A stretch of DNA of 64,000 nt, taken from an uncultured Alphaproteobacteria bacterium (GTDB taxonomy: Bacteria > Pseudomonadota > Alphaproteobacteria > HIMB59 > GCA-002718135). Below are positions 21,205 to 51,850 of the stretch, one piece after another (within the stretch, counting starts at the first letter, position 1; each line of letters starts with the position of its first letter). Below the pieces are notes generated by a model, which did no database searches, was not told where the DNA came from, and worked only from the letters and a program-made list of their open reading frames with translations. The position numbers were made by a program, and so were the translations under genes. The stretch lies in the NCBI GenBank assembly GCA_902515745.1, contig CABXWB010000007.1, forward strand, positions 15,478 through 79,477, written 5' to 3'.

Positions 21205-21301
21205 TAAGCAATTTAGCTATTTTTTTATATATGCATTTTTTGCATATCTAAATATGATCATAATCAATTTAAATATAAATAATTTTTATTATTAATTTTA
21301 C

Positions 21302-21354
21302 ATCGTTCATTTTGAATAATTCAAAACGGAAGTAGACGAAAGTTGAAGGAACGC
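21302..21354 (+). ncRNA. Glutamine riboswitch (glnA motif), aptamer 1
   Basis: P1 CGTTC/GAACG; P2 TTTTGAA/TTCAAAA; CGGAAGTA junction; P3 GAC-GAAA-GTT; GAAG. Confidence 0.88.
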
Positions 21355-21368
21355 ATGCAAGTTATTAA

Positions 21369-21421
21369 ATCGTTCAATCTGTTTTTAACAGATCGGAAGT
21401 AAGCTAAAGCTGAAGGAACGC
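21369..21421 (+). ncRNA. Glutamine riboswitch (glnA motif), aptamer 2
   Basis: P1 CGTTC/GAACG; P2 ATCTGTT/AACAGAT; CGGAAGTA; P3 AGC-TAAA-GCT; GAAG; stems covary with aptamer 1. Confidence 0.88.
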
Positions 21422-21455
21422 GGATCTTATTAAAATCCATAGCTAAGCATGAACT

Positions 21456-21479
21456 ATAACAGATTGAAAGGACTGTTAT
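21456..21479 (+). promoter_or_regulatory. Putative riboswitch expression-platform hairpin containing AAGGA
   Basis: ATAACAG/CTGTTAT stem; 21458-21468 is also the exact complement of aptamer 2 positions 21373-21383. Confidence 0.55.
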
Positions 21480-21484
21480 TAAAT

Positions 21485-21538
21485 ATGATAGGTATTAAGT
21501 TTGGATTTATAAATACTTCATTCATTTCATCGTACTAA
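21485..21538 (+). CDS. Putative 17-aa uORF/leader peptide
   Basis: MIGIKFGFINTSFISSY*; stop lies 2 nt before ATG 21541; SD spacing (12 nt) is long. Confidence 0.3.
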   Translation: MIGIKFGFINTSFISSY

Positions 21539-21540
21539 AT

Positions 21541-22947
21541 ATGTTTAATGAAATGTATCAATCTGAGAGTCTAATCAGAAATCACTATAACAATATAAAT
21601 GAATGGTTAGAAAAAATGACAGCTAAAGTGATTAATGAAAAAAATGCTGAGGCAGAGACTCATTTTAGAAATATAGGAATAACATTCTCAACTAATAGTG
21701 AAACAGCAAGAGAGAGAATAATACCATTTGATTTAATTCCAAGAATTTTTACTTTTAGTGAATGGTCTAAATTAGAAAAAGGAGTAATTCAAAGAGCGAA
21801 AGCTTTAAATGCTTTTTTGGCAGACATTTATAATCAAGGAGAAATAATAAAAGCTAATATTATACCTAAAGAATTAATTTTTAAAAAGAAATCTTATGAA
21901 GTTTCAATGTTTGGTTTTACACCACCTAGATCAATTTATAGTCCAATAGTAGGTATAGATTTAGTAAGAACAAATCATAATGAGTATTTTGTATTAGAAG
22001 ATAATTGTAGAACACCTAGCGGTGTATCATACATGTTAGAAAATAGAGAAATAATGATGAGAATGTTTCCTGATTTATTTCATACAAATCGAGTTACACC
22101 TATTGATGATTATCCAACTAGATTACTTCAGACTTTAATGAGTTTAGCTCCAATAAAATGCAACACATCTGAGCCAGTATGTGTTCTTCTTACACCTGGT
22201 CCATTGAATAGTGCTTATTATGAACATAGTTTTCTATCCGATCAAATGGGTATTGAAATGGTAGAGTCTACTGATTTGTTTGTTGAGGGTGAATTTCTAT
22301 ACATGAAAACCGTAGATGGTCCCAAAAAAGTTGATGTTGTATATAGAAGGATAGATGATGATTTTTTAGATCCTCTTTGTTTTAACCCAAATTCAGTAAT
22401 TGGAATACCTGGAATTATGGATGTGTATAGAACTGGAGGAGTAAATATTTGTTCAGCTCCGGGTGCCGGTATCGCAGATGACAAAGCAATTTATATTTAT
22501 GTTCCAGAAATGATAAAATTTTATTTAGGAGAACAACCAATATTAGAAAATGTTCAAACATGGAGTTGTGACAAAGATGATGAACTTAATTATGTATTAG
22601 ATAACTTATCTGATCTTGTTGTAAAAGAAGTTGATGGCTCTGGAGGATACGGGATGCTAATAGGTCCAAAATCCTCTAAATCCTCAATTGAAGAATTTAG
22701 AAGAAAACTTTCCGCAAATCCTCGGGGATATATTGCTCAACCTCTCTTAGATCTATCATTCTCTCCAACTTTGATAAAAAATCAAGTTGAAGGAAGAAGA
22801 GTTGATTTGAGACCTTTTTGTTTAATGGGAGAAAATGCACAATTAAGTTCTGGAGGATTAACAAGAGTTGCAATGAACGAGGGATCTTTCGTTGTTAATT
22901 CAAGTCAAGGTGGTGGAGTCAAAGATACATGGGTTTTAGCGGAATGA
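21541..22947 (+). CDS. Circularly permuted type 2 ATP-grasp peptide ligase
   Basis: GITF, IPFDLIPR, VLEDNCRTPSGVSY, NSAYYEH, YRRIDDDFLDP, GSGGYG, DLRPF, GGLTRVA and VVNSSQGGGVKDTW. Confidence 0.93.
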   Translation: MFNEMYQSESLIRNHYNNINEWLEKMTAKVINEKNAEAETHFRNIGITFSTNSETARERIIPFDLIPRIFTFSEWSKLEKGVIQRAKALNAFLADIYNQGEIIKANIIPKELIFKKKSYEVSMFGFTPPRSIYSPIVGIDLVRTNHNEYFVLEDNCRTPSGVSYMLENREIMMRMFPDLFHTNRVTPIDDYPTRLLQTLMSLAPIKCNTSEPVCVLLTPGPLNSAYYEHSFLSDQMGIEMVESTDLFVEGEFLYMKTVDGPKKVDVVYRRIDDDFLDPLCFNPNSVIGIPGIMDVYRTGGVNICSAPGAGIADDKAIYIYVPEMIKFYLGEQPILENVQTWSCDKDDELNYVLDNLSDLVVKEVDGSGGYGMLIGPKSSKSSIEEFRRKLSANPRGYIAQPLLDLSFSPTLIKNQVEGRRVDLRPFCLMGENAQLSSGGLTRVAMNEGSFVVNSSQGGGVKDTWVLAE

Positions 22948-22953
22948 GATACA

Positions 22954-23889
22954 ATGTTAAGTAGAACAGCTGAGTATCTTTACTGGATTAGTAGATATAT
23001 GGAGAGAGCTGAGACTAATGCTAGACTCTTAGATGTAGGTTATAGAATGTCATTATTTCCTAATCCAAATGGCTACAATAATGAGTGGGAATCTGTTTTA
23101 GCTGCTGCAGGCGCAATACAAGGATACAAGAATAAATATAATATTATTGAACAAAAAAAAGTTGAAGATTATTTATTTTTCGATGAAGATAATCCTTCAT
23201 CTGTTTTTAATTGTATTCTTAATGCTAGAAGTAATGCTTTAGTTGTAAGAACATCATTCACACCTGAATCTTGGCTAGCTATTAACAAAACTTATCAAGA
23301 AATTTTAAAATTAAAAAATAATAATTTTAATGCATCAGACCTTCCTAATTTAACTGAATGGACTATTGAACAAGTAAATTTATTTAGAGGTTCATTAAGT
23401 TCTTTATTAAGAAACGATGGTTATAACTTTCTTTATTTAGGATTATTTGTTGAAAGGGCAGATAATTCTGCAAGATTATTAGATGTTAAATATTTTGTTT
23501 TACTTCCTAAACCTCAATATATCGGAGGAAATATTGATAATATGCAGTGGAGTATACTCCTTAGATCTTTATCATCTTTTAGAGCTTTTCGTTGGGCATA
23601 CGATGGTGATGTCACTTCTACAAAGATAGCTGATTTTTTAGTACTAAACAGTGATTGCCCAAGATCACTTAGTTTTTGTATACAAAACATTGTAAAACAC
23701 TTAACAAATTTGACTTGCAGTCCTGAGAAAGTTAATAAAATTTATAATACCCTAAAAGATCTTAATATTAAAATTCAAGAAGAGAAAATTGAGTCAATCG
23801 TTGATTTTGGCCTTCATGAATTTGTTACACAATTTATTAATAAAATTTCAAGCGTAGATTCTGATATTCAAAAGGAGTTTTTTAATTAA
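22954..23889 (+). CDS. Alpha-E domain protein (DUF403)
   Basis: MLSRTAEYLYWISRYMERAE and GLFVERAD ER motifs; PRSL. Confidence 0.93.
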   Translation: MLSRTAEYLYWISRYMERAETNARLLDVGYRMSLFPNPNGYNNEWESVLAAAGAIQGYKNKYNIIEQKKVEDYLFFDEDNPSSVFNCILNARSNALVVRTSFTPESWLAINKTYQEILKLKNNNFNASDLPNLTEWTIEQVNLFRGSLSSLLRNDGYNFLYLGLFVERADNSARLLDVKYFVLLPKPQYIGGNIDNMQWSILLRSLSSFRAFRWAYDGDVTSTKIADFLVLNSDCPRSLSFCIQNIVKHLTNLTCSPEKVNKIYNTLKDLNIKIQEEKIESIVDFGLHEFVTQFINKISSVDSDIQKEFFN

Positions 23890-24728
23890 TGGAAATAATA
23901 ATTGAGCATACAACTAAATATGAATATAAAAATCCTGTAGCTGGACTTATACAATCAACTAAACTTTATCCATCTGAATATAATGGTTTAAAAATTCTAG
24001 ATTGGAATGTTCATCATGACTCAGCAGAAAAATCTGCAGTCTATAAAGACGGAGAAGCAAATAATATACAAAGTTTTACTAGTTTAAAAAAAGTAAAAAA
24101 AATTCAGTTTACTGTTCTTGGTAAAGTAGAAACTTTTGATACAAAAGGGGTTTATTTTAACCCAGATGATAAATTAGATCCTTGTGTTTATTTAAGGAAT
24201 TCAAATTTAACTATTCCAGATGTAGACATAAAAAATTTAGCTTTAGAAGCAAAAAATGGTTTTAACAATGATGAAAGATTACTTATTTCTCACAATTTAA
24301 TGAATTTAGTAAGAGAAAAAGTTGAATATAAACCTCTTTCAACAAATAATGAAACAACAGCTCAGGTAGCTTATAATCAAAAAAAAGGTGTATGTCAGGA
24401 TCAAGCACACATAATGGTGTCAGCTGCTAGAACAATCAATATACCTGCTAGATATGTTAACGGTTACATGCATAATAATTCACATTCATCAGAATTTCAG
24501 TCAACACATGCATGGGCAGAATTTTTTATAAATGATCTTGGTTGGGTTGGTTTTGATCCTACAAATGGTTGCAGCCCTGATGAAAGATATATAAGAGTAT
24601 CTTGTGGTCTTGATGCAAGTGAAGCTGCACCTATAAAAGGGGTTTTCTACGGACATAATGGTCAAAACAATTTGATTGAAAACTTAGATATACACGTTCA
24701 AACACTTGAAAATAGTTCTCAACAATAA
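23889..24728 (+). CDS. Transglutaminase-like protein
   Basis: IEHTTKYEY N-domain; GVCQD, PARYVNGY, HAWAE and GWVGFDPTN catalytic C-H-D. Confidence 0.92.
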   Translation: MEIIIEHTTKYEYKNPVAGLIQSTKLYPSEYNGLKILDWNVHHDSAEKSAVYKDGEANNIQSFTSLKKVKKIQFTVLGKVETFDTKGVYFNPDDKLDPCVYLRNSNLTIPDVDIKNLALEAKNGFNNDERLLISHNLMNLVREKVEYKPLSTNNETTAQVAYNQKKGVCQDQAHIMVSAARTINIPARYVNGYMHNNSHSSEFQSTHAWAEFFINDLGWVGFDPTNGCSPDERYIRVSCGLDASEAAPIKGVFYGHNGQNNLIENLDIHVQTLENSSQQ

Positions 24729-28490: not shown

Positions 28491-30140
28491 TTAATTAAAA
28501 GAGACTTCTGCTAAAGAAGCAGTATCTTCTAAGTATAAATATAATTTATCATTGTAATAAATCACATCTCTTATTCTTTCACCAATATCTAATTTTTTTA
28601 TAATATTAAAATTATCTTCTTTATTATTATAATTGTATTCAAAAAAATATAGAGAATGGGCTTTTAAAGATGCCACAACATATTGATTCTTATTATTTAA
28701 ACCAATAATTTGTGAAATTCCTATTGATGGATTGAAATATTTTAATGGTTCTATAAATCCGTGTTCAGAATGTGATTTATGTAATGGATATTTTTCATAT
28801 TTATTTTTATTTTCGGGGGCATTTTTACCTCCATAATGCTCTCCATAAGATGAAATAGCCCAACCAAAATTTTGTATGGTATTATTATCAAGTTTGATAA
28901 CATTTATTTCATCACCACCTTGAGGTCCATGCTCTGCCTCTAAAAGAAAATTTTCATCCTCATTAAAAAAAAGACCCTGAGGATTTCTATGACCTATACT
29001 GATAATTTCATAATTTTTAATTTTCTTATTAATTTTAAGAACCTTACCAAAAATACTACTCTCCGTTTGTGCTCGATATCGACTTCTAAAATCACCTATT
29101 GAAAATAATACAGTTTCATTATTTAAATTAATAATTCTTCCACCTGATTGATGAGCATTGTATTCATTATCTATATTATCATATTCATTCACACATTCTT
29201 CTGAAGCAAATAATGTTTTAAAATGAATATAAACATAATTCATTTTTCCTGAAAGCAGGCTGGTATTCCAACAATTTTCTTTAACTTCTTTTGTGTAGGA
29301 GACATAAATATCATCATCAAAGATTTCTACGTCTTTTATTGAGTACCAACCTCCTTTTAACCATGAGTATTTAGGATCATCAAAGTGTCTTGATTTTTTG
29401 AATTGTTCAACATCAATAAAATTATTAAGATTATTCTGAATCTGTTTAAGAGATATTCCAAACTTTGGTTTATTTAATGGTTTTTTTGAGTATCCAATAA
29501 TACCACTAGAAGAAACAAGAATTAGATTATTATCATAAATATCTAAATAACCACTTCCAGGTGTTGTGTTAGTTATTCCATATAACAAAGTATCTCCAAT
29601 GGGAGTGTAAAATTTGACACTTAAATTATCATCATAGATATTAAAACGTCCATCATAACCATAGTTTAAATCTTTTCCTTGATCTTTAAACATCATATCG
29701 AATTCAGAGGGATCTATTGATTTAAAAATTTGATTAAAGGTTATTTGATTTTGTTCTAATTTTTTTAAATTACTATTAAGATTATCATTCAGGTTATTAA
29801 ATGCATTGACAAATATTTCTCTATCTCCACTTATTAATATTTTTTCTTTATTAAAATTTCTTATATTTTCTTCTAAATCATTTATATTTTTTTGATCAAC
29901 GTTAATTGTAGCTTCTAAATTCTCTCTATTTTTATTCTCTAATTTTTCAATCTTGTTTTCTAAATTTTCTATATTTTTAAAAGGAACTAAATATTCATAA
30001 GCAAATTCTCTATATTCTTTTCCTAGCCTATTTGTAATAAAAGAAAAATCTAATAACAAATTTAATAAAAGGATTAAAATTAAAATAAAAATGGATATAT
30101 TTTTTAAATTATACAATTTAGTTAATATGTACTTCTGCAA
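28491..30140 (-). CDS. Membrane-anchored PQQ-dependent sugar dehydrogenase (GSDH family)
   Basis: HQSGGRI, GHRNPQGL, EHGPQGGDEIN and ERIRD; N-terminal TM and coiled coil. Confidence 0.8.
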   Translation of the reverse strand: MQKYILTKLYNLKNISIFILILILLLNLLLDFSFITNRLGKEYREFAYEYLVPFKNIENLENKIEKLENKNRENLEATINVDQKNINDLEENIRNFNKEKILISGDREIFVNAFNNLNDNLNSNLKKLEQNQITFNQIFKSIDPSEFDMMFKDQGKDLNYGYDGRFNIYDDNLSVKFYTPIGDTLLYGITNTTPGSGYLDIYDNNLILVSSSGIIGYSKKPLNKPKFGISLKQIQNNLNNFIDVEQFKKSRHFDDPKYSWLKGGWYSIKDVEIFDDDIYVSYTKEVKENCWNTSLLSGKMNYVYIHFKTLFASEECVNEYDNIDNEYNAHQSGGRIINLNNETVLFSIGDFRSRYRAQTESSIFGKVLKINKKIKNYEIISIGHRNPQGLFFNEDENFLLEAEHGPQGGDEINVIKLDNNTIQNFGWAISSYGEHYGGKNAPENKNKYEKYPLHKSHSEHGFIEPLKYFNPSIGISQIIGLNNKNQYVVASLKAHSLYFFEYNYNNKEDNFNIIKKLDIGERIRDVIYYNDKLYLYLEDTASLAEVSFN

Positions 30141-31668
30141 TAGATGCTGTATCTTCTAAATATAAATATAATTTTTCATTGTAATAAATCATATCTCTAA
30201 TTCTTTCGCCAATGTGAACTCTTTCAATTTTTATATTGTCGGAATTACCGTTACTTACTTTGTTTGGAGTATTTATTTTTTTATCATTATAATCATATTC
30301 AAAAAAATAAAGAGACTCGTCTTTCATTGAAGCTACAACGTAGCTATTATTTATATCTAAGCCAACTATTTGAGATATACCAATAGATGGATTAAAATAA
30401 ATAACAGGTTCAATAAAATCATATTCAGAGTGAGATTTATGAAGTGGATACTTTAAGTACTTTTTTTTGTTAAAGGAGGCTTTTTTCCCACCATAATGTT
30501 CACCGTATGAAGAAATAGCCCATCCATAGTTAGGTATTTCATCATTATTCAATTCTATTAAATTAATTTCATCACCACCTTCAGGACCGTGCTCAGCTTC
30601 TAGTAAGAAATTATTATTTTTATTGTAATATAAACCTTGAGGATTTCTATGTCCCATGCTTACAACTTTGTAATCCTTGGTATTTTTATTTATTTCAATT
30701 ATTTTACTAAATATACTATCTTCTTTTTGAGCTCTAAATCTACTTCTAAAATCACCAGTAGAAAAAAGTAGTTTTTGATCATCAACATTAAATATTCTTC
30801 CTCCTGATTGATGAGCATTAAATTCACCATCAATGTTATCATAAAAATGAACACATTCATCAGATGTAAAAAGATTATCAAATATAATAAGTTTATAATT
30901 TATTTTCCCATATAATAAACTTGTATTCCAACAATTTTCTTTAACTTCTCTTGTATACGATACATAAATTTGATCTTTATAAATATTAATATCTTTTATT
31001 GAAAACCAACCTCCTTGTAACCAGTCAAAATCATGAACTCTTGATTTTTTAAATTGCTCTTCGCCTATGAATTTATTAATATTTGTTTTTATTTGTTTAA
31101 AATGTAAATCTTTTTTTATGCTTTGAATCGGATTATTAGAATAAGCTAAAATACCACTAGCTGATATTAAGATTAAATTATCTTCATATATTTCCAAATA
31201 ACCACTTCCAGGAAGATTATTAGATATACCATATAATAATATATTATTTTGAGGGCTAAAAATTCTAGTCCGAATTTTATTGTTTGAAAAGCTTTGTTCA
31301 GGATTAATTGAATATTCTAAATTGCTGTTATTTTTTTTGATGCTCATATCAAATTGATAAGGATCAAATTGTTCTAAAATTATATATAATAATTCTGAGT
31401 CATTTTTAGTTTCAATATTTTCTTCATATAAATCATTGTAAGCTTTCTCAAATAATTTTTTTTGTCCTCTAAATAGATTACGTTCTTTTTTAAGTTCCTT
31501 AATCTGCTTTTCTAAATTGTTAGTATTCTTATGTACGATCAAGTATTCTGCTATAAATTTTTTACTATTTGCACCAAATTGATTATATATAAATGATAAA
31601 TCTAATAATAAATTTAAAACTAATATTATAAATAAAATAAAAAAAATAGTATTTCTAAATATCTTCAT
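30118..31668 (-). CDS. Membrane-anchored PQQ-dependent sugar dehydrogenase (GSDH family), tandem paralog
   Basis: Same motifs as the adjacent gene, with long identical peptide blocks. Confidence 0.8.
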   Translation of the reverse strand: MKIFRNTIFFILFIILVLNLLLDLSFIYNQFGANSKKFIAEYLIVHKNTNNLEKQIKELKKERNLFRGQKKLFEKAYNDLYEENIETKNDSELLYIILEQFDPYQFDMSIKKNNSNLEYSINPEQSFSNNKIRTRIFSPQNNILLYGISNNLPGSGYLEIYEDNLILISASGILAYSNNPIQSIKKDLHFKQIKTNINKFIGEEQFKKSRVHDFDWLQGGWFSIKDINIYKDQIYVSYTREVKENCWNTSLLYGKINYKLIIFDNLFTSDECVHFYDNIDGEFNAHQSGGRIFNVDDQKLLFSTGDFRSRFRAQKEDSIFSKIIEINKNTKDYKVVSMGHRNPQGLYYNKNNNFLLEAEHGPEGGDEINLIELNNDEIPNYGWAISSYGEHYGGKKASFNKKKYLKYPLHKSHSEYDFIEPVIYFNPSIGISQIVGLDINNSYVVASMKDESLYFFEYDYNDKKINTPNKVSNGNSDNIKIERVHIGERIRDMIYYNEKLYLYLEDTASIAEVHIN

Positions 31669-40923: not shown

Positions 40924-41625
40924 TTAATTTACAATACTTAATTCTTTTTTTAAAAATTCTTTATCTAATTGATCTTTAATACCTTCCTTAGTCACACTAC
41001 CTCTTCGCATTATGAAAATATAATCAGATAACTTAAAAGCAAATTCAAAATATTGTTCAACAAGAAATATCGACATTTTTTTTTCATTTTTTAAATAGAG
41101 AATTATATCACCAATTAGTTTTATTATATTTGGTTGAATTCCTTCTGTAGGTTCATCCATTAATAATACTTTAGGTTTTGTTATGAGAGCTCTTGCAATA
41201 GCTAATTGTTGTTGTTGCCCTCCAGATAAATCTCCACCTCTTCTGTCAATCATTTTTTTTAAAATTGGAAATAAATCAAATATTTCTTCTGGAATAAAAT
41301 GATCTTGTGTTTTTAAACATCCAAACCCTATTTCTAGGTTTTCTCTAACTGATAACAAAGGGAATATAAACCTACCTTGAGGAACATAACCAATACCTTT
41401 TTTTGCAAGATTATGTGATTTCTCGTTATTCATATTTATATTTTGATAAAAATAATCTCCGGAAGAAGGATTATGAATTCCAGTTAACATTTTTAATAAT
41501 GATGTTTTTCCTACACCGTTAGAGCCCATTAGTGTTGTTATCTTACCTTCTTGAATTTCCATATTAACATTATGAAGAATTTGTGATGAACCATAATGTA
41601 AATTTATATTTTCTAATTTAATCAT
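40924..41625 (-). CDS. urtE: Urea ABC transporter ATP-binding subunit
   Basis: GSNGVGKT, YVPQGR, RRGGDLSGGQQQQ and DEPTEGIQP; operon context. Confidence 0.93.
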   Translation of the reverse strand: MIKLENINLHYGSSQILHNVNMEIQEGKITTLMGSNGVGKTSLLKMLTGIHNPSSGDYFYQNINMNNEKSHNLAKKGIGYVPQGRFIFPLLSVRENLEIGFGCLKTQDHFIPEEIFDLFPILKKMIDRRGGDLSGGQQQQLAIARALITKPKVLLMDEPTEGIQPNIIKLIGDIILYLKNEKKMSIFLVEQYFEFAFKLSDYIFIMRRGSVTKEGIKDQLDKEFLKKELSIVN

Positions 41626-42366
41626 CTATCTTCCTAAATAAACTTCAATAACATTTTCATCATTTGAAACTTCATTAATTGTTCCTTCTGATAAAATTGA
41701 ACCATCATGCAAGACTGTTACATTGCATTCTAAATCTTTTATAAATTCCATATCATGTTCAACAACAATTATAGATTTTTTTAAGGAAAGTTTTTTTAGT
41801 ATCTTTACCGTTTGTTGTCTTTCTTCTGTAGTCATACCAGCTGCAGGTTCATCAACTAACAATAGTTTTGGTTCTTGAGTTAATAACATACCTATTTCTA
41901 ACCATTGTTTTTGACCATGGCTCAATTCTCCAGAAATCTTAGATTTAATTTCAAATAAATTAATTTCTTTTAATATTTTATTTATTTTTTCTTCATCTAA
42001 AGAATTAAATGATTGAAAAATTACACTGAATGGATTTCTAATTTTTTTTTGCGAAATTATTAAATTTTGCAAAACAGTTTTATTTTCAAAAATCGTTGGT
42101 TTTTGAAATTTCCTACCGACTCCTAATTGTGCAATTTCAGACTCTTTTAATAATAATAATGAGTACTGTTTATCTGTCCATAAAACATCGCCATTATCTG
42201 GTTTAGTTTGTCCTGTTATTATGTCCATGAAAGTTGTTTTACCTGCTCCGTTAGGTCCAATAACAGCTTTGATTTCGTTATATCCTATCCTGAAACTTAA
42301 ATTATTAACTGCTTTGAAACCATCAAATGAAACAGAAATATTTTTTACCTCTAAAAGATTATTCAT
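41626..42366 (-). CDS. urtD: Urea ABC transporter ATP-binding subunit
   Basis: SFDGFKA, GPNGAGKT, GRKFQKP, LSHGQKQWLEIGM and EVYLGR. Confidence 0.93.
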   Translation of the reverse strand: MNNLLEVKNISVSFDGFKAVNNLSFRIGYNEIKAVIGPNGAGKTTFMDIITGQTKPDNGDVLWTDKQYSLLLLKESEIAQLGVGRKFQKPTIFENKTVLQNLIISQKKIRNPFSVIFQSFNSLDEEKINKILKEINLFEIKSKISGELSHGQKQWLEIGMLLTQEPKLLLVDEPAAGMTTEERQQTVKILKKLSLKKSIIVVEHDMEFIKDLECNVTVLHDGSILSEGTINEVSNDENVIEVYLGR

Positions 42367-43535
42367 ACTTTTCTTATAAATATGCTTTTTAAAAAACCAA
42401 AAATACCTTCTCTACTAATTAAAGTTACAATAACAAATCCTAGTCCTAAAATTACTGTCCACCAATTTACCCATTCAATTTTATAAAATATCAACGATAT
42501 GCTCGGCGCCTGACCACTTGTAAACCATGAAGATATTAACGAAACTGATGCAGCACCTATTATAGCCCCATATAAATTTCCTCTACCTCCTATTGCTACC
42601 CATACAGCTAAATATATTGATGCAATAGGTGCGATTTCAGCTGGATTTATTATACCAGCTTGAGGATAATATAATGCACCAGCTAAAGCTGAAATAACAG
42701 CGGTAAGTACAAAAACAAATAATTTATATGATTCAACATGATAGCCAAGAAATCTAATTCTAGTTTCATCATCTCTTATTGCAGTAATAATTGAGCCAAA
42801 CTTACTATTAACCAAATAAAAAAAGAAGATGAATACTAATATTAAAAACAATGCACTAGCCCAAAAAAAATAAATGGAAATAACAAATTGAGAGGTATCA
42901 TCATATCCTGGGATATTTTGAAGTCCTGATAGTCCATTATTTCCTCTCAAACCGCTATCATTTTGAAATAAATAGAGAGATAGAGCTAGAGTCATTGCTT
43001 GAGTTAAAATAGATAAGTAAACTCCAGTAACTCTAGATCTAAATGCTAACCAGCCAAAAACAAAAGCAAGTAAACCAGGAATAAGAATAACCATTGCAAG
43101 TTGGAAATAAAAATTATCTGCATATGCCCATATTAACGGTATTTCAGATCCACCAACAACTCCAAATATTTGATTCCCTATAGCATCAGATATTTCTTGT
43201 GGAGTTAAAGGTAATGACTCTGATATCGAAGCAGTAAGTACAATTATTTCAGTTCTTTTGTACATTAACCACATACCAATCATGTATCCTCCAAGCCCAA
43301 AAAATGCAAAATGCCCTAAAGATAAAATACCACAGTATCCCCAAACAACATCCATAGATAAAGCTACAACGCATAAACATAGGGTTTTACCCAATGTTTT
43401 AATAAAGCTAGTAGAAATAAAATTTATTGAAAATAGATCACTTAATAAAGTTATTATAAAACTAAATAAAATAATGGTGATACAAAAAAATAAAACCTGT
43501 CTATGATTTGTATCTTTTAATAAACTATTAAACAT
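42363..43535 (-). CDS. urtC: Urea ABC transporter permease
   Basis: WGYCGILSLGH, FRSRVTGVYLSILTQA and VAIGGRG. Confidence 0.93.
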   Translation of the reverse strand: MFNSLLKDTNHRQVLFFCITIILFSFIITLLSDLFSINFISTSFIKTLGKTLCLCVVALSMDVVWGYCGILSLGHFAFFGLGGYMIGMWLMYKRTEIIVLTASISESLPLTPQEISDAIGNQIFGVVGGSEIPLIWAYADNFYFQLAMVILIPGLLAFVFGWLAFRSRVTGVYLSILTQAMTLALSLYLFQNDSGLRGNNGLSGLQNIPGYDDTSQFVISIYFFWASALFLILVFIFFFYLVNSKFGSIITAIRDDETRIRFLGYHVESYKLFVFVLTAVISALAGALYYPQAGIINPAEIAPIASIYLAVWVAIGGRGNLYGAIIGAASVSLISSWFTSGQAPSISLIFYKIEWVNWWTVILGLGFVIVTLISREGIFGFLKSIFIRKV

Positions 43536-45543
43536 CTTTAACCCTGCCTTTTAATGCAAATATTCCACGAGGTCTAAATTGTATAAATAAAATTATAAAA
43601 ATAATCATGTATGTTTGAGCTGCAAGAGTATTTGATGGATTGAACCATTCAATAATTTTTTGAAGAAAACCAATTAATGCTGCTCCAGCTAAAGTACCAA
43701 ATATATTTCCTACTCCTCCAACTACAACGGTCATGAAGCTCTGAACAATATATTCAGTTCCCAATTCTGATGTAACTTTAGAAAATAGTCCAATTGCAAC
43801 ACCCGCAATTCCTGCAATTGCTGATCCAAAACCAAATGTTAACATATTAATTCTATCAGGATTAATTCCCATATTAGATGCCATTATTGGGTTTTGAGTA
43901 ACAGCTCTAATTTCAAGACCTAACCTTGTCCTGTTCATTATAAAAAGTAATAATAATAGAAACAATATACCCATTAAAATAATTGCTATTCGAATATAGC
44001 TAATCGATAAATCATCGTTAATTGAGAGCGCTCCATCAAGCCAAGAGGGTGCAGTCAAAGGACGTGCTTGAGTACCAAAGATATTTTTAGCCAATTGCTG
44101 TAAAGCTATACTTATTCCAAAAGTGGCCAATAAAGTATCAAGTGGATTTTTATATAAGTGCCGAATAACCAATCTTTCTAATAATACTCCTGCGCCAAAT
44201 GTAATTATAAATGCTAATGGCAGGGCAATCAGTATCGATATGGTGTGATTTGGTATATATTGTTGAACGACGTAACCAGTATAAGCGCCCATCATTATAA
44301 ATTCACCGTGAGCCATATTTATAACCCTCATGACCCCAAAAGTAATTGCAAGACCGATTGCTCCTAAAAAATAAATGGATGATAAACTAATACCATCTAC
44401 AAAAAGATCGATATACCTATAGATATTCACTCTAAAATTTATATTTTTAAGAGTCTCTTTAGTCTTGTTTGTTACTTGTGATGAGATTTCATCATACTCA
44501 GTATAAAAAGTAAATTTATCTACTGATTTTTTAATTTCTTCCTTTGATATAAAAGGGGGTACAACATTAATAGAGGCTAAATAGTTGTAAGCATCCAATC
44601 TATTTAAATCATTATTTAGTGAGCTAATATCAAAGCCTGCATTTTTTAGTTTTTTGATATTTGAAACTAAACTTTCTTTTATTATTTTTTTTGTAATTCT
44701 TGGCAAAACTTTTTTATTATTACTTAATAAATCGTAAGCGTCATTATAAGTTAACTCAGGCTTATTACTAGAATACGAAGATAAAATATAATTAGATGTA
44801 CCATCATTGTTCTTATATGTTTTGTTTGGAATAATTTTTCTAGCTATATTTCCCATAATTTTTTTATTATTTGTAAAGAGAATATCTGATGTATTTAATA
44901 AATTATTTAAAGAAGCTCTAACTTCTAAGGATGTATCATTTGAAAAAAAACTTAAAACATCTAACTTTTCCTGTTCTGATTTACTAAACTTTAAAATTGC
45001 AAAATTTAAGACTTTATTGATTTCCTCTCTAAAATTATTGTCGATCTCATTTTGATATGCTGTTCTTAAAATTTTGAGATGAGTTTTCTGAATATCTCTC
45101 TTTAATGATTGAAGACTTTCTCTTCTAACATTTATATCTTCATCTAAAATTTGATATTCTACGAGTGCTGAGTCAATTTTAGACCTTACTCCACTATTAG
45201 GTTTTATACTTTTTAATTGTTTTTTTGTAAATTTACCAATTTCATTATTATTGAATATGTCATAAGCAATAATGGTATCTTCTTTTTTTTCTGTATAAAC
45301 TATAAGATTAGAATCTTTAATAATTGATAGCTCTTTTGATTTCCAAAGAATTAAGAATTTTTTTACATCATCTTGATTAAAAATTTTTATATCATTTAAA
45401 ACTGGGTCAACTGTTTTAGATGAACTTTTTGATATTAATTTGTAATTACTATTAATAAATTCTTGAATTGTTGTATTTGAGTGAACACTAAAAGAAATTA
45501 ATAAGAAAAATATTAATAAAAAAGAATTGAAAACATATTTCAT
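43528..45543 (-). CDS. urtB: Urea ABC transporter permease with long periplasmic N-domain
   Basis: GLAITFGVMRVINMAHGEF and TLLATFGIS. Confidence 0.93.
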   Translation of the reverse strand: MKYVFNSFLLIFFLLISFSVHSNTTIQEFINSNYKLISKSSSKTVDPVLNDIKIFNQDDVKKFLILWKSKELSIIKDSNLIVYTEKKEDTIIAYDIFNNNEIGKFTKKQLKSIKPNSGVRSKIDSALVEYQILDEDINVRRESLQSLKRDIQKTHLKILRTAYQNEIDNNFREEINKVLNFAILKFSKSEQEKLDVLSFFSNDTSLEVRASLNNLLNTSDILFTNNKKIMGNIARKIIPNKTYKNNDGTSNYILSSYSSNKPELTYNDAYDLLSNNKKVLPRITKKIIKESLVSNIKKLKNAGFDISSLNNDLNRLDAYNYLASINVVPPFISKEEIKKSVDKFTFYTEYDEISSQVTNKTKETLKNINFRVNIYRYIDLFVDGISLSSIYFLGAIGLAITFGVMRVINMAHGEFIMMGAYTGYVVQQYIPNHTISILIALPLAFIITFGAGVLLERLVIRHLYKNPLDTLLATFGISIALQQLAKNIFGTQARPLTAPSWLDGALSINDDLSISYIRIAIILMGILFLLLLLFIMNRTRLGLEIRAVTQNPIMASNMGINPDRINMLTFGFGSAIAGIAGVAIGLFSKVTSELGTEYIVQSFMTVVVGGVGNIFGTLAGAALIGFLQKIIEWFNPSNTLAAQTYMIIFIILFIQFRPRGIFALKGRVKDV

Positions 45544-45554
45544 TATTAGATTAA

Positions 45555-45591
45555 ACTAAATGCTATTGGTAGTTAATCAACAGCATTTAGT
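45555..45591 (-). terminator. Hairpin after urtA (partial terminator or mRNA stabiliser)
   Basis: ACTAAATGCT / AGCATTTAGT inverted repeat in the urtA-urtB spacer. Confidence 0.6.
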
Positions 45592-45602
45592 CTTAATAGT
45601 AT

Positions 45603-46865
45603 TTAATAATTTGATTTTATTTGAACACAAGAATTAGTGTCAGTATTGTACATACCACATCCTAAATCTTTCCAGTCTGATTTTAACACAGCTGATTCAG
45701 CTAAATGATCTGTCCATGCATCTCCTGGCACTTCCTCAGTTTGACTTATAATATCAAATTGTCCATCTTCTAGTATCTCTCCAATAAGTACTGGTTTTGA
45801 TAAATGATGATTTGGAAGCATCTCAGCCATACCACCTGTTAGATTTGGAACTTTTAATCCATACATTTGCTCTCTCACTGCATCTACATCAGTTGTGCCA
45901 GCAGCTTCAACAGCTTTAACATACATATTAAAACCAATTACATGAGCTTCCATGGGATCATTAGTAACTCGATCCTCACCCATTTTTTCTTTCCATTTAG
46001 CAACAAATTCTGCATTTATATCAGTGTCAGCTGATTGGAAATAATTCCAAGCTGCCAAATGACCAACTAAGTTAGATGTATCTAAACCTGAGAGTTCTTC
46101 TTCACCAACTGAAAATGCAACAACAGGAATATCATCAGCACTTACATTTGCTGCTGCTAATTCTTTATAAAAGCCTATGTTAGCATCACCATTAATGGTT
46201 GATATTACACCTACTTTTTTTCCATCTGCACTCAATGCGACAACATCAGCTACTATTTTTGACCAATCATCATGACCAAATGGCGTATAATTTACAAAAA
46301 TATCAGACTCCGGAATACCTTTATCAATTAAATACTGATTTAAAATTCTGTTGGTAGTTCTTGGATAAACATAATCTGTTCCTAATAAAGCAAATTTTTC
46401 GACACCAAGTTCTTCTAAATAATAATCAGTAGCTGGTATTGCTTGTTGGTTAGGTGCTGCTCCAGTATAGAAAACATTCTTCGAACTTTCTTCACCTTCA
46501 TATTGAACTGGGTAAAATAGTAATCCATTTAATTCTTCAATTACTGGTAAAACGGATTTTCTTGAAACTGAAGTCCAACAACCAAATATTACATCTACTT
46601 CTTGAACAGTAAGCAGCTCTCTTGCTTTTTCAGCAAATAGTGGCCAATCTGATGCTGGATCAACTACAACAGCCTCCAATTGTTTTCCTAAAAGACCTCC
46701 TTTTTTATTTTGTTCATCAATCATGAACAGCATTGTATCTTTTAAGGTTGTCTCCGAAATACCCAAAGAACCAGATAAGGAATGCAATACTCCGACTTTA
46801 ATTGTTTCTGCGTATGCTTTTAAACTTAAAAAGCTTATAAATAATATAATGATAAATTTTTTCAT
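45603..46865 (-). CDS. urtA: Urea ABC transporter substrate-binding protein
   Basis: IKVGVLHSLSG, DPASDWPLFAEKA, GCWTSVSRK, YPVQYEG and GTDYVYPR. Confidence 0.95.
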   Translation of the reverse strand: MKKFIIILFISFLSLKAYAETIKVGVLHSLSGSLGISETTLKDTMLFMIDEQNKKGGLLGKQLEAVVVDPASDWPLFAEKARELLTVQEVDVIFGCWTSVSRKSVLPVIEELNGLLFYPVQYEGEESSKNVFYTGAAPNQQAIPATDYYLEELGVEKFALLGTDYVYPRTTNRILNQYLIDKGIPESDIFVNYTPFGHDDWSKIVADVVALSADGKKVGVISTINGDANIGFYKELAAANVSADDIPVVAFSVGEEELSGLDTSNLVGHLAAWNYFQSADTDINAEFVAKWKEKMGEDRVTNDPMEAHVIGFNMYVKAVEAAGTTDVDAVREQMYGLKVPNLTGGMAEMLPNHHLSKPVLIGEILEDGQFDIISQTEEVPGDAWTDHLAESAVLKSDWKDLGCGMYNTDTNSCVQIKSNY

Positions 46866-47041
46866 ATTATTTCCTCTCTAAAAAATTGTATCAAATTCAT
46901 CTTAAAAATTTTAGGAACTTATAGAAACACTAACTTAACAATTCAGATATGCGTATTTAACTTATCCAAAACTGCTAATATTTTTTGGTATTTTAATTTA
47001 CGATTAAAGTTTATAAATTATTTTAATACATAATAATAATA

Positions 47042-47836
47042 ATGTTAAAAAAATTACAAAGATCTGAAGGTGTAATAGACTTAAAAATTTTAGACAATGA
47101 AGTAAAAAAATTATTTCAAAAGGGTTCATCCAAAGTTTTAATTCCAAATAGTTATAACAAAAATAAAGAATTCGTTTTACTTAATACAAGTGGAGGCACA
47201 ACATGTAATGATATTATTAAAACAAATATCAAAATAGAAAATTCAAAAACTAACATAACCACTCAAGCGGCAGAAAAAATATATTCTGGTGTTGGAGATC
47301 CTGCTCTCATTGAAGTAAATATTTCAATCAAAAATTCTAATATTAATTGGCTTCCAAAAGAATTAATACTTTTTAATAATTCAAAATTGAAAAGAAATAT
47401 AAATATTAATTTAGATAAATGTTCTAATTTATTTCTTTGTGAAACTCTAATATTAGGAAGAAAAGCGATGTCAGAAGAAATTAATAACTTATTTTTTTTA
47501 GATCATTGGAAAGTCAATATAGATAATCAAATTAAACATTTTGAATCAATAAATATTAATCAATATACACATCAAATATTTAATAATAAATTTTCAATTA
47601 ATAAAAACTCAGCTTTTTCAACAATTTTAATATTTGGATATATTGTGGATCAAATTAAAGATGATTTAATAAAAATTATTAAAAAAATAACTAATATTTA
47701 TTGTGAAATTTCTACTTGGAATAATAAAATTGTTATAAGGTGTTTAGCTAATGATAATTATGATTTAAAAAAAACACTAAATTATATTTTAGAAAATATT
47801 ATTCATGATAAAGTTCCTAATAGTTGGTATTTATAA
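47042..47836 (+). CDS. ureD: Urease accessory protein
   Basis: LNTSGG, TTQAAEKIY and ETLILGR; position before ureA. Confidence 0.9.
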   Translation: MLKKLQRSEGVIDLKILDNEVKKLFQKGSSKVLIPNSYNKNKEFVLLNTSGGTTCNDIIKTNIKIENSKTNITTQAAEKIYSGVGDPALIEVNISIKNSNINWLPKELILFNNSKLKRNININLDKCSNLFLCETLILGRKAMSEEINNLFFLDHWKVNIDNQIKHFESININQYTHQIFNNKFSINKNSAFSTILIFGYIVDQIKDDLIKIIKKITNIYCEISTWNNKIVIRCLANDNYDLKKTLNYILENIIHDKVPNSWYL

Positions 47837-48139
47837 ATGAAATTAACACCAAGAGAAAAAGATAAGTTAATGGTCAGCATGGCAGCCAATGTTGCCAGGA
47901 AACGTTTACAAAGAGGAGTTAAACTTAATTACCCAGAAGCTATAGCTTTGATAACAGATTTTGTCATAGAAGGTGCAAGAGATGGAAAAATGGTATCAGA
48001 ATTAATGGAAACAGGTGCTCATGTTGTAAAAAAAGAAGATTGTATGGATGGAATTCAAGATATGATTCCAGAAGTGCAGGTAGAAGCAACATTTCCTGAT
48101 GGAACAAAATTAGTAACAGTACATAAGCCGATAAGATAA
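47837..48139 (+). CDS. ureA: Urease gamma subunit
   Basis: [11 protein letters not shown]...[14 protein letters not shown]. Confidence 0.98.
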
Positions 48140-48447
48140 TGAAACCTGGAGAAGTAATAACAAAACAAAATAGTGATATTAATTTGAATGATTATCGTAA
48201 TTCAATTACGTTAAAAGTTTCTAATAGTGGCGATCGACCAATACAAGTTGGAAGCCATTATCATTTTGCTGAAACTAATGAATATTTAAAATTTGATAGA
48301 GAAAAATCAAATGGTATGCGTTTAGACATTCCATCAGGAACAGCTGTACGATTTGAACCCGGTCAATCAAAAGATGTAGAATTAATTCCAATAGCTGGAG
48401 ATAGAAAGATATTTGGTTTTAATAAGAAAGTAATGGGTCAATTGTAA
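48139..48447 (+). CDS. ureB: Urease beta subunit
   Basis: [13 protein letters not shown] and [15 protein letters not shown]. Confidence 0.98.
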
Positions 48448-50153
48448 TGAAAAAAATAAATAGAGATTCTTATGCTGATATGTATGGTCCAACAACCGGT
48501 GATAAAATTAGACTTGCTGACACAGAACTTTTTATTGAAGTAGAAAAAGATTTAACAACATACGGTGAAGAAGTAAAATTTGGTGGAGGAAAAGTCATTC
48601 GAGATGGAATGGGGCAGTCTCAAGTATCCCGACAAGATGGTGCGGTCGATACAGTTATAACAAACGCTTTAATTGTTGATGTAAAAGGAATTTATAAAGC
48701 TGATATTGGGCTTAAAGATGGCTTAATTAATGAGATTGGAAAAGCTGGTAATCCAGATACACAACCAAATGTAAATATTGTTATAGGACCTGGAACAGAA
48801 ATTATTGCAGGTGAGGGAAAAATTATTACAGCAGGAGGCTTTGATAGTCATATTCATTTTATTTGTCCTCAACAAATTGATGATGCACTTCATTCAGGCA
48901 TAACAACGATGTTGGGAGGAGGAACTGGCCCTGCTCATGGTACTTTGGCAACTACAGTTACACCTGGACCATGGCATATAGAGAGAATGATACAATCTGC
49001 TGATGCTTTTTCAATGAATTTAGCTTTTGCAGGTAAAGGAAATAGTTCATTACCCAAGGCTCTCGAAGAACAAGTAATTGCTGGAGCAAGTTCATTAAAA
49101 TTACATGAAGATTGGGGTACAACTCCAGCAGCTATCGATAATTGTTTAAATGTTGCTGATGAACATGACATTCAAGTTATGATTCACACTGATACTTTGA
49201 ATGAAAGTGGATTTGTAGAGAGTACGATTAAAGCAATTAATGGAAGAACCATTCATGCATTTCATACGGAGGGAGCAGGGGGAGGTCATGCACCTGATAT
49301 TATAAAAGTTTGTGGTGAAGAATATGTTATTCCATCATCAACAAACCCAACAAGACCTTATACAGTTAATACAGTCGAAGAACACTTAGATATGTTAATG
49401 GTTTGTCATCACCTTGATAAGTCAATACCAGAAGATGTTGCATTTGCTGAAAGTCGAATTCGAAAAGAAACCATTGCTGCTGAAGATATACTGCATGATA
49501 TGGGTGCATTTTCAATTATTGCATCTGATAGTCAAGCAATGGGTCGTGTTGGTGAAGTTATTATAAGAACATGGCAAACAGCACATAAAATGAAAGTACA
49601 ACGTGGGCAATTAAAGGAAGAGCAGGGTGATAATGATAATTTACGTGTTAAACGTTATATAGCTAAATATACAATTAATCCTGCCATTGCTCATGGTATT
49701 TCCGATCATATTGGCAGTATTGAAAAGAATAAACGTGCCGATATAGTCATTTGGGATACTGCTTTTTTTGGTGTTAAACCTGAAATGGTTTTGCAAGGTG
49801 GAAGTATTTCTTGTTCGCAAATGGGTGATCCTAATGCTTCTATTCCAACACCACAACCAGTGTATTCACGACCAATGTTTTCTGCTTTTGGAAAATCATT
49901 AGAAAAATCTACAGCAACTTTTGTTAGTAAAGTTTCTTTAGATAAAAATTCATTCAAAAATTCTGGAATTAGCAAATCTTTATTGCCAGTTAAAAATATT
50001 AGAAAAATTTCTAAAAAAGATATGGTATTAAATGATTATTGTCCAAATATAGAAGTTAATCCAGAAACTTATGAAGTTAAGGCAGATGGAGAATTAATTA
50101 CCTGTGAGCCTGCTAAAATACTACCTTTAGCTCAACGTTATTTCATGTATTAA
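48447..50153 (+). CDS. ureC: Urease alpha subunit
   Basis: [29 protein letters not shown] and SDSQAMGR. Confidence 0.99.
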
Positions 50154-50158
50154 ATTTT

Positions 50159-50605
50159 ATGCAAACAGCCTTTAAAATAACAGATCACAAAGATGCTAGT
50201 AAAAATATACAAGATGAAATTACTTTATCTTATGAAGAACGATTTATACGACGAAAAAAATTAATAACAGATAATGGAACGGAATTTTTAGTTAATCTAG
50301 AAGAAACAGTCAGTATGGATGAAGATCATTATTTCGAATTAGAAAATGGAAATTTAATTCAAGTAGTTTCAAAAGAGGAAAATTTGATTGAAATTACAGG
50401 TAATAATTTAAAACATATTATTTGGCATATTGGCAACAGGCATTTACCTTGTCAAATTGAAGAGAAAAGAATTCTTATTCAAGATGATGCTGTAATTTTA
50501 GATATGATTTTAAAATTACACGGGAATGTAAAAAAAGTTTTTGAAAAATTTAAACCTGAAGGTGGAGCTTACGGTATGGGACGTACTCATAGTCATAAAC
50601 ACTAA
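50159..50605 (+). CDS. ureE: Urease accessory Ni chaperone
   Basis: WHIGNRHLP, FKPEGGAYG and His-rich tail. Confidence 0.95.
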   Translation: MQTAFKITDHKDASKNIQDEITLSYEERFIRRKKLITDNGTEFLVNLEETVSMDEDHYFELENGNLIQVVSKEENLIEITGNNLKHIIWHIGNRHLPCQIEEKRILIQDDAVILDMILKLHGNVKKVFEKFKPEGGAYGMGRTHSHKH

Positions 50606-50606
50606 A

Positions 50607-51242
50607 ATGAAAAAAATAAAAGATCCTCTTCAAATATTACAAATTTGGTTTTCTTCGTCTTTTCCTGTAGGTTCATATGCATACTCACATGGTTTAGAGG
50701 CATTAATAGATGGTAATAAAATTAAAAATAAAGATGATGTTAGAGAATATTTAGAAGCATTATTATTTTATGGCAGTCTTCGAAATGATTATATTTTTTT
50801 AAAGTCTGTGTATGTGGGTGAAGAAATTAATGACTTAATTCTAGCAAGTGCTTCTTCAAAAGAAAGACACATAGAAATGATTGATATGGGTAATTCATTT
50901 CGAAAGATAATGAAAGATAGTTGGGAGCTAGTATTAGAAGAAAATACATCTTTTGTTTATTGTATTAGCAAAGCAGCTCTTCATTTTAATATAAAATTTG
51001 ATGACTTAATTAAATTTTATCTCCAGTCATATATTTCAAACTTAATTAATGTTTGTGTAAAGCATATTCCTATGTCACAAAAAGATGGACAAATATTAAA
51101 TGTTAATTTTATTGATCAAATACAAAAATTTTTAGATCAATCATACCAATTAACTCTTAAAGATATTGGAACGAGTTTTTTTATTGGTGATATTTTTGCA
51201 ATTAAACATGAAAATTTAGTTTCAAGGATTTATTTAACATGA
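50607..51242 (+). CDS. ureF: Urease accessory protein
   Basis: [15 protein letters not shown] and HE...SRIYLT; start reassigned to ATG 50607. Confidence 0.9.
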
Positions 51243-51850
51243 ATAATATAAATGGTCCGTTAAAAGTTGGTATAGGTGGAGGAATAGGAACAGGAAAAAC
51301 TAGCTTAACAGAAGCTTTATGCCGTCATTTATCAAACAGAATTTCAATGGCAGTAATATCAAATGATATTTATACAACTGAAGATGCAGAATATTTAATG
51401 AGAGCTCAAGTTCTTCCTATGGAAAGAATTAAAGGCGTTGAAACAGGTGGGTGTCCCCATACGGCTATCCGAGAAGATTGTTCAATTAATTTACTAGCCG
51501 TTGATGAAATGAAAAATAAATTTCCTGATTTAGAATTAATACTTATTGAATCAGGCGGCGATAATTTGGCAGCTACTTTTAGTCCAGAGTTAGTCGATTT
51601 AACAATTTATATGATTGATGTTGCCCAAGGAGCTGACATTCCAAGAAAAAAAGCTCCTGCTATAAAAAAATCAGATTTGTTGGTAGTTAATAAAGTTGAT
51701 TTAGCACCTCATGTCGATGTTAATATTGATCAAATGGAAGAGGATGTAAAGGAAGCCAGAAATGGGTTACCTTATGTTTTCGGTGAAATGAAAAATAATA
51801 ACGGAATAGAAAAAATTTCTGACTTCTTAATTTCTCAAGGTGGGATTTAA
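51239..51850 (+). CDS. ureG: Urease accessory GTPase
   Basis: [25 protein letters not shown] and NKVD. Confidence 0.96.

Follow-up and report, generated by a model that had tools for sequence, protein, structure and literature searches.

Glutamine riboswitches of the glnA motif (Rfam family RF01739) are known as an aptamer class that also occurs in tandem form, both reported in the consulted part of Weinberg 2010 (PMC2864571). Among the genes downstream of RF01739 in environmental sequences, Table S2 of Klähn 2018 (PMC6212724) counts CP_ATPgrasp_2 38 times, Alpha-E 7 times, COG2308 4 times and Bact_transglu_N 2 times. The accessible main text of that paper does not discuss this pairing, the words 'ATP' and 'grasp' being absent from it, and it describes the host and direction of glnA-linked riboswitches as unknown. 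RF01739 was also reported in SAR86 (PMC12379486, as available to us), so other non-cyanobacterial hosts exist, and riboswitches are unmentioned in the accessible text of a paper on AEGEAN-169 (PMC10308909). The genes for CP-ATP-grasp, Alpha-E and transglutaminase proteins form an operon which, according to the available texts, is induced by nitrogen limitation in Pseudomonas putida (PMC3235984, PMC5666114) and for which peptide synthesis or protein tagging has been suggested (PMC5666114, PMC3235984, PMC6376114). Here we describe a stretch of 64,000 nucleotides (nt) from an uncultured Alphaproteobacteria bacterium (contig CABXWB010000007.1, positions 15,478 to 79,477), hereafter the window, in which two RF01739 aptamers precede such an operon. 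A preliminary description of this DNA knew of no earlier report of the pairing, and this novelty does not hold, since Table S2 of Klähn 2018 already counts it. Our literature search, which left most subscription papers outside its range, found no paper describing the pairing or an OFF-type platform; the operon identifiers are absent from eight supplementary files of Weinberg 2010, Additional files 1, 3 and 7 lying outside that search and possibly mentioning the operon. We consider it likely, with a probability of about 0.68, that the tandem switch is a translational OFF switch that forms a regulon with glnA and amt in nitrogen starvation and stands in for a missing GlnD.

Tandem glutamine aptamers and their proposed regulon

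The two aptamers of the window are as follows.

21302..21354, + strand: glutamine aptamer 1 (RF01739, 64.8 bits)
21369..21421, + strand: glutamine aptamer 2 (RF01739, 65.9 bits)

Both were recovered by cmscan well above the RF01739 gathering cut-off of 35 bits, with matches at 21302-21357 (E 4.7e-12) and 21369-21424 (E 2.2e-12), which confirms the glutamine riboswitch identity proposed in the preliminary description. The identical cores and the different, paired P2 and P3 stems that it had noted were also recovered, save for one G-U in P3 of aptamer 1. Across 56 leaders, themselves chosen with a core pattern, neither aptamer varies at the core columns, which include the G23 equivalent, or at the C following P1, the C60 equivalent, and 13 of the 29 predicted pairs of the P1-P2-P3 junction show two-sided changes, all of them in P2 or P3. 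The aptamers do stand before the three genes, as had been stated, but they are not directly adjacent: aptamer 2 is separated from the ligase start by 119 nt that contain an expression platform and a 17-codon open reading frame (ORF), referred to as the mini-ORF. By sequence and structure the locus is a genuine member of RF01739, and it is predicted to bind glutamine.

The host genome contains six RF01739 aptamers, arranged as three tandem pairs before the ligase operon, glnA and amt. The two pairs outside the window are listed below; the glnA leader has a terminator-like hairpin.

Contig C2, 22679-22799: tandem pair before glnA, behind a PII gene
Contig C1, 105307-105429: tandem pair before amt

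RF01739 was found in 103 of the 105 genomes of the genus (probably AEGEAN-169/HIMB59), and in 77/79 genomes of the family versus 0/71 of the sister family. The host assignment is a probable one: AG-337-I02, at 97% identity the nearest record that carries a lineage-type name, belongs to order HIMB59/AEGEAN-169 according to PMC8692485. The ligase is present in 58 genomes of the genus and in none of 11 genomes of the other genera of the family. We examined 56 of the 58 ligase loci, four of which are cut by contig ends, and a pattern search revealed two aptamers at all 52 loci with at least 280 nt upstream; the ligases that retain the tandem leader span 85-100% identity. As the genomes compared here share ancestry and are not complete, none of their counts can be treated as independent. 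Searches for GlnD gave no match in the 105 genomes of the genus and a match in each of the three sister-family genomes searched (3/3). Sigma-54 was above the cut-off in none of 187 genomes of the order. The host genome yielded no GlnE, one PII and one NtrC-family regulator behind a 718-codon frame, which we tentatively read as NtrX and an NtrY-like protein, respectively. The link between the operon and glutamine status made in the preliminary description is supported, and is strengthened by the presence of the same leader before glnA and amt and by the pairing in a second family (see below).

Leader architecture and folding models

The region between aptamer 1 and the ligase contains four further elements.

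21354..21365, + strand: linker, 5' strand of a proposed long-range helix, starting at the C after P1 (C60 equivalent)
21434..21451, + strand: conserved 3' relay element, complementary to both the linker and the initiation region and able in principle to pair with either
21455..21480, + strand: hairpin of conserved pairs with a Shine-Dalgarno (SD)-like sequence (21466-21471) in its loop
21485..21538, + strand: 17-codon mini-ORF, which ends 2 nt before the ligase start

For their comparison we used 151 distinct tandem leaders (57 ligase, 48 amt and 46 glnA; two of 153 were dropped). The 80 metagenome leaders among them were retrieved with a pattern that fixed the linker but not the 3' element, and therefore only the 71 leaders from genomes test the conservation of the linker. 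Complementarity between the linker and the region 21439-21451 is complete in 145/151 leaders, with five losing one end pair and one losing two, and the linker/relay helix is present in the minimum-energy fold of the window leader. The relay element is common to ligase, amt and glnA leaders and is also complementary to the initiation region; in the 76 amt and glnA leaders that show both patterns, its C-run matches the SD-side G-run in every case (CC/GG in 50, C/G in 26).

The seven pairs of the SD hairpin are kept in all 23 distinct ligase platforms analysed (one further platform was skipped), with G-C, G-U and A-U alternating at one position; RNAalifold, run on a misaligned leader set, did not predict this hairpin. 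The stop codon of the mini-ORF lies between -8 and +6 nt from the ligase ATG in 51/51 distinct leaders, a placement expected for 7% of shuffles, and its length ranges from 16 to 25 codons across ligase leaders, with no conservation of the peptide sequence. From these arrangements we propose that the mini-ORF may be a translational coupler to the ligase, served by the SD hairpin.

Constrained folding was applied to a sample of 36 of the 151 leaders. With the five bases that follow P1 set free, the initiation region became costlier to open in every one of them, by 2.5 kcal/mol in the window leader and with medians of 1.1 (ligase), 3.3 (amt) and 3.7 (glnA) kcal/mol. When the relay element was scrambled, the medians were -0.9, -0.3 and +0.4 kcal/mol, respectively. 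The modelled OFF effect stems mostly from aptamer 1.

Promoter region and transcripts

Two candidate promoter features were located upstream of aptamer 1.

21232..21244, strand not assigned: palindromic candidate operator TGCA-N5-TGCA, 70 nt before aptamer 1 (leader pattern match)
21287..21295, + strand: candidate -10 region read from the sequence, with the transcript start proposed at about 21302

Allowing at most one mismatch, the operator was matched in 47/52 ligase leaders (45 of them at -70 to -72) and in 30/44 amt leaders, all at -69 to -71, and in none of 42 glnA leaders. As the pattern occurs once in the window versus 0.69 sites expected by chance, the evidence for this operator lies in its fixed position; the palindrome is probably an activator site. 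A consensus promoter scan did not list the candidate -10 region and returned no more sites than in shuffles.

Metatranscriptome contigs, which give no expression level, were obtained from 4 of the 23 listed runs. One RNA contig spans 21302-21558 and a second one 21403-21838, so that aptamers and ligase are bridged; contigs of this kind cannot prove a start or a single transcript. The first of them begins at 21302 with loose adapter-like letters, presumably a template-switch adapter, which is only a hint for the transcript start.

Proposed switching mechanism

We propose that an activator at the -70 palindrome would start transcription at aptamer 1. At low glutamine, the linker would pair with the 3' relay element, leaving the initiation region more open, and ribosomes would translate the mini-ORF and then re-initiate at the ligase ATG. 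In the aptamer literature, as far as its accessible text goes, glutamine binding pairs C60 with G23 (Klähn 2018, PMC6212724; PMC11477058), and this pairing melts the helix attached to P1 (Klähn 2018). Transferred to these leaders, glutamine would recruit C60 to G23 and melt the helix after P1, and the freed relay element would pair with the start region and extend the SD hairpin, with a fall in translation. A known ON actuator would thereby be inverted via strand exchange. This OFF reading depends on the logic of the regulon together with the assumed melting step.

The same pairing in a second family and related operons

In a class-wide draw of 150 other alphaproteobacterial genomes scanned for RF01739, the aptamer was found in one, genome G194, which belongs to a family of another order (f10), has GlnD and sigma-54, and carries the aptamer directly before the same three-gene operon. 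Within f10, RF01739 occurs in 28 of 42 genomes. From 32 matches, 30 loci were fetched: 28 lie before the ligase, one per riboswitch-bearing genome, and the remaining two before amt (L452, genome G351) and before another gene. The f10 aptamers are single and have a platform different from that of the host genus (anti-aptamer/anti-SD). In models of 23 leaders, the bound form closed the initiation region in 20 and opened it in three, with a median of +2.98. In two further leaders (L472 and L477) the start codon follows the 3' strand of P1 at a distance of 4 nt, so that binding would bury the only SD-like sequence. The sigma-54 pattern was absent within 90 nt of the f10 aptamers (0/30) and upstream of distant ligase homologues (0/28).

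Two quick trees of the ligases placed the f10 proteins in a clade of their own and grouped the window ligase with ligases labelled Pelagibacteraceae, before which no riboswitch was found by cmscan (0/13) or, where upstream DNA was available, by pattern search (0/16). Two independent recruitments, or one old pairing followed by loss and a changed platform, both fit these data. In the sister family, the four loci read (L443-L446) each hold a distant CP-ATP-grasp gene (49% identity) and an Anbu-type gene, transcribed divergently, a candidate two-gene form of the system.

Several observations were made on related sequences. A candidate regulator site, the 13-nt near-palindrome TGTCAATTTGGCA in either orientation, is common to the Pelagibacteraceae-labelled operons (L097-L116) and lies about 40-80 nt upstream of the ligase start. 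In genome G342 (L480) the aptamer is repeated at three places before an ORF without assigned identity. Many viral contigs (L262-L381) contain RF01739-like aptamers, 13 of 120 in tandem. The viral aptamers are usually followed by a hairpin that covers the SD of a short, basic ORF, the arrangement that an ON switch would call for; the viral tandems have short linkers, and the relay element was seen in none among the 13 listed.

The three-gene operon and its possible function

The operon comprises the following genes.

21541..22947, + strand: circularly permuted (CP) ATP-grasp ligase, 468 amino acids (PF14403, CP_ATPgrasp_2, E 4.5e-154)
22954..23889, + strand: Alpha-E protein, 311 amino acids, all-helical (PF04168, E 2.2e-82)
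23889..24728, + strand: transglutaminase-like cysteine enzyme, 279 amino acids (PF08379, Bact_transglu_N, and PF01841, Transglut_core)

A 6-nt gap between the first two genes and a 1-nt overlap between the last two bear out the tight coupling of this triad given in the preliminary description, and the gene order is that of the Anbu operon. The ligase matches PDB entry 3N6X, 'putative glutathionylspermidine synthase', over its full length (E 5.6e-176), that name being itself a putative annotation. Residues E17, R18, R24, G163 and E167 of Alpha-E are invariant in 106 aligned homologues, the full-length ones selected out of 150 matches, and the triad C169-H207-D223 of the transglutaminase is kept in all 78 loci with a match (80 searched); the Cys-His-Asp and ER motifs are therefore intact, as in the Anbu operon. 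The predicted Alpha-E model (pLDDT, predicted local distance difference test, of 94) retrieved generic helical bundles only in fold searches (best Z 9.8) and no Foldseek match at E<=0.001, and its sequence gave no significant match in the PDB. A complex prediction of ligase, Alpha-E, ATP and Mg reached a median of 0.29 against a mark of 0.32, and NCBIfam assigned a name to none of the three proteins.

An Anbu gene was found neither adjoining the operon, as already noted in the preliminary description, nor elsewhere in the host genome (89.7% complete) by tblastn with an Anbu-type protein, and the sole PF00227 match in that genome is a 184-codon frame that we read as HslV. Tblastn for Anbu likewise gave no match in 52 genus and Pelagibacteraceae-labelled loci, and matches in 25 of 28 other alphaproteobacterial loci. 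The operon is thus an Anbu-less form of a known operon; the view of it as a minimal three-gene version stands for this locus but is not particular to it, as the form is also seen in Pelagibacteraceae-labelled records and in genome G194.

With respect to function, the ligase would use ATP to join a carboxylate to a scavenged amine as an amide, Alpha-E would serve as scaffold or carrier via its invariant glutamates, and the Cys-His-Asp enzyme would release the product, so that the enzymes would form a nitrogen capture or recycling cycle and not a store. We advance this amine capture-and-release cycle tentatively, at somewhat less than even odds, and regard it as the weakest step of our interpretation. 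Also compatible with an OFF switch, and somewhat unlikely in our view, is protein tagging by the triad, be it for turnover or for reversible regulation, in nitrogen starvation. This is the hypothesis published for the Anbu operon, in the texts available, and the catalytic triad is intact; on the other side, Anbu was not found in the host genome, a second PF00227 match appears in none of the f1 genomes listed, and the literature, in its accessible part, reports no demonstrated activity. If the operon is expressed at low glutamine, roles in nitrogen capture, scavenging, recycling or turnover are more plausible than a role in storage, which we hold to be improbable. The preliminary description had pointed to storage or scavenging of nitrogen through Gln/Glu-based chemistry: scavenging is favoured, a switch that is OFF at high glutamine would speak against storage, and Gln/Glu-based chemistry is not implied by glutamine regulation, because glnA and amt share the leader. 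Moreover, the homologous ligase of Yersinia, in the part of the report available, releases phosphate from ATP and is not stimulated by free Gln or Glu. In a Mycobacterium tuberculosis preprint (10.64898/2026.04.15.718621), two homologues were tested only as negatives for the synthesis of gamma-aminobutyric acid (GABA)-trehalose.

These domains correlate with urea genes in marine metagenomes, according to the accessible text of PMC3597751. Elsewhere in the window, positions 40924-51850 hold ATP-binding cassette (ABC) transporter-like genes for urea (- strand) and a urease cluster (+ strand) with a common divergent promoter region, in which neither a riboswitch nor a match to the operator pattern was found; a match to Rfam '5_ureB_sRNA' (48596-48885) is antisense within the large urease gene. 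At 28491-31668, two adjoining similar ORFs of 516-549 amino acids on the minus strand are apparently paralogues.

Alternative explanations of the regulation

A number of results weigh against our interpretation. Removal of C60 alone leaves the helix in place, with medians of +0.4 (ligase) and +0.1 (amt) kcal/mol, so that its full melting has to be assumed. For ligase leaders, the models yield a small effect and show the SD hairpin in the bound and the unbound state alike. All type-1 glutamine riboswitches tested are ON switches (Klähn 2018, PMC6212724, in its accessible part). The linker helix shows one-sided changes only and is not predicted by RNAalifold, and the whole window leader folds no better than shuffles (z 0.01). 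The C-run/G-run pattern is missing from 18 of 94 amt and glnA leaders, and where present its agreement reflects few independent events. A third RNA contig joins the upstream gene to aptamer 1. In f10, scrambling leaves part of the effect in place (median +1.15) and 3/23 leaders behave in the opposite way. Finally, both Alpha-E and the transglutaminase N-domain are absent from the sister family (0/71 genomes each); the two proteins hence travel together, and Alpha-E is not required by every such ligase.

An OFF switch that acts via transcription attenuation or RNA decay, rather than through a block of initiation, is quite unlikely. One glnA subgroup, lacking the SD-side pattern, does have a G+C-rich hairpin followed by a U-rich run; in the window leader no terminator-like site was found, and the conserved features centre on the SD and the start codon. 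Less probable still is a switch that is ON with glutamine, as in Synechocystis gifB, serving an operon that stores surplus nitrogen as peptide or polymer. Both tested classes activate expression upon binding, and the OFF effect modelled in ligase leaders is small, but the linker and relay element also serve glnA and amt, whose expression is expected to fall at high glutamine, the second-family leaders whose P1 includes the SD are compatible with OFF alone, and homologous operons go up under nitrogen limitation. Given the assumed melting step, the folding models would also point away from a gifB-type ON switch. Equally improbable is a leader peptide that starts at an AUG just after aptamer 1 with an SD-like sequence in P1, the transit of the ribosome through the linker setting the downstream fold: an ATG or GTG stands at that place in 151/151 leaders, and in two leaders of the second family the start codon comes shortly after that P1 strand, yet the frame varies from 4 to 43 codons with no common length and the start triplet itself belongs to the paired linker. 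That the leader was copied from an amt locus, whose leader it resembles in relay element and operator, and is vestigial before the ligase is extremely improbable, given its retention in 52/52 loci with ligases 85-100% identical and paired stems, and the ligase-specific SD hairpin with its coupled mini-ORF.

We favour translational OFF control. A broader picture, which we offer at slightly below even odds, would be that OFF-acting type-1 switches are used by streamlined marine alphaproteobacteria, that in one family a tandem aptamer with the relay replaced GlnD and runs an entire nitrogen regulon, that the second family independently recruited a single aptamer with the operon as nearly its sole target, and that the operon is a core nitrogen-scavenging pathway of oligotrophs.

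Comparison with known systems

What is new here is that glnA, amt and the ligase have a leader in common, together with the complementary loss of GlnD, the predicted OFF relay with its conserved elements and the pairing in a second family. Klähn 2018 did not settle which organisms have glnA-linked switches or whether these repress; the locus names a probable host group, and it supplies a concrete, mutable OFF model for a class with ON examples only in the accessible literature. If this model is true, a lost protein sensor would here have an RNA in its place. Low glutamine would be the condition in which to seek the product of the widespread CP-ATP-grasp/Alpha-E/transglutaminase system.

The type-1 switch of Synechocystis gifB (Klähn 2018, PMC6212724) has the same core, and in both a helix beginning at the C60 equivalent is proposed to do the switching. 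In contrast to gifB, which is ON, the present switch is in tandem, sits before glnA, amt and the ligase operon of an alphaproteobacterium, and is predicted to be OFF via the relay. With the tandem glnA RNAs of marine metagenomes (the consulted parts of Weinberg 2010, PMC2864571, and Klähn Table S2) it has in common the motif, the tandem form and the target classes, to which our proposals add a host family, a platform, an operator and a mini-ORF. The Anbu operon (PMC3235984, PMC5666114 and PMC6376114, in their available text) has the same first three genes in the same order and the same link to nitrogen limitation; unlike it, the operon described here has no Anbu, is under predicted riboswitch control and belongs to an order without sigma-54 above the cut-off in 187 genomes.

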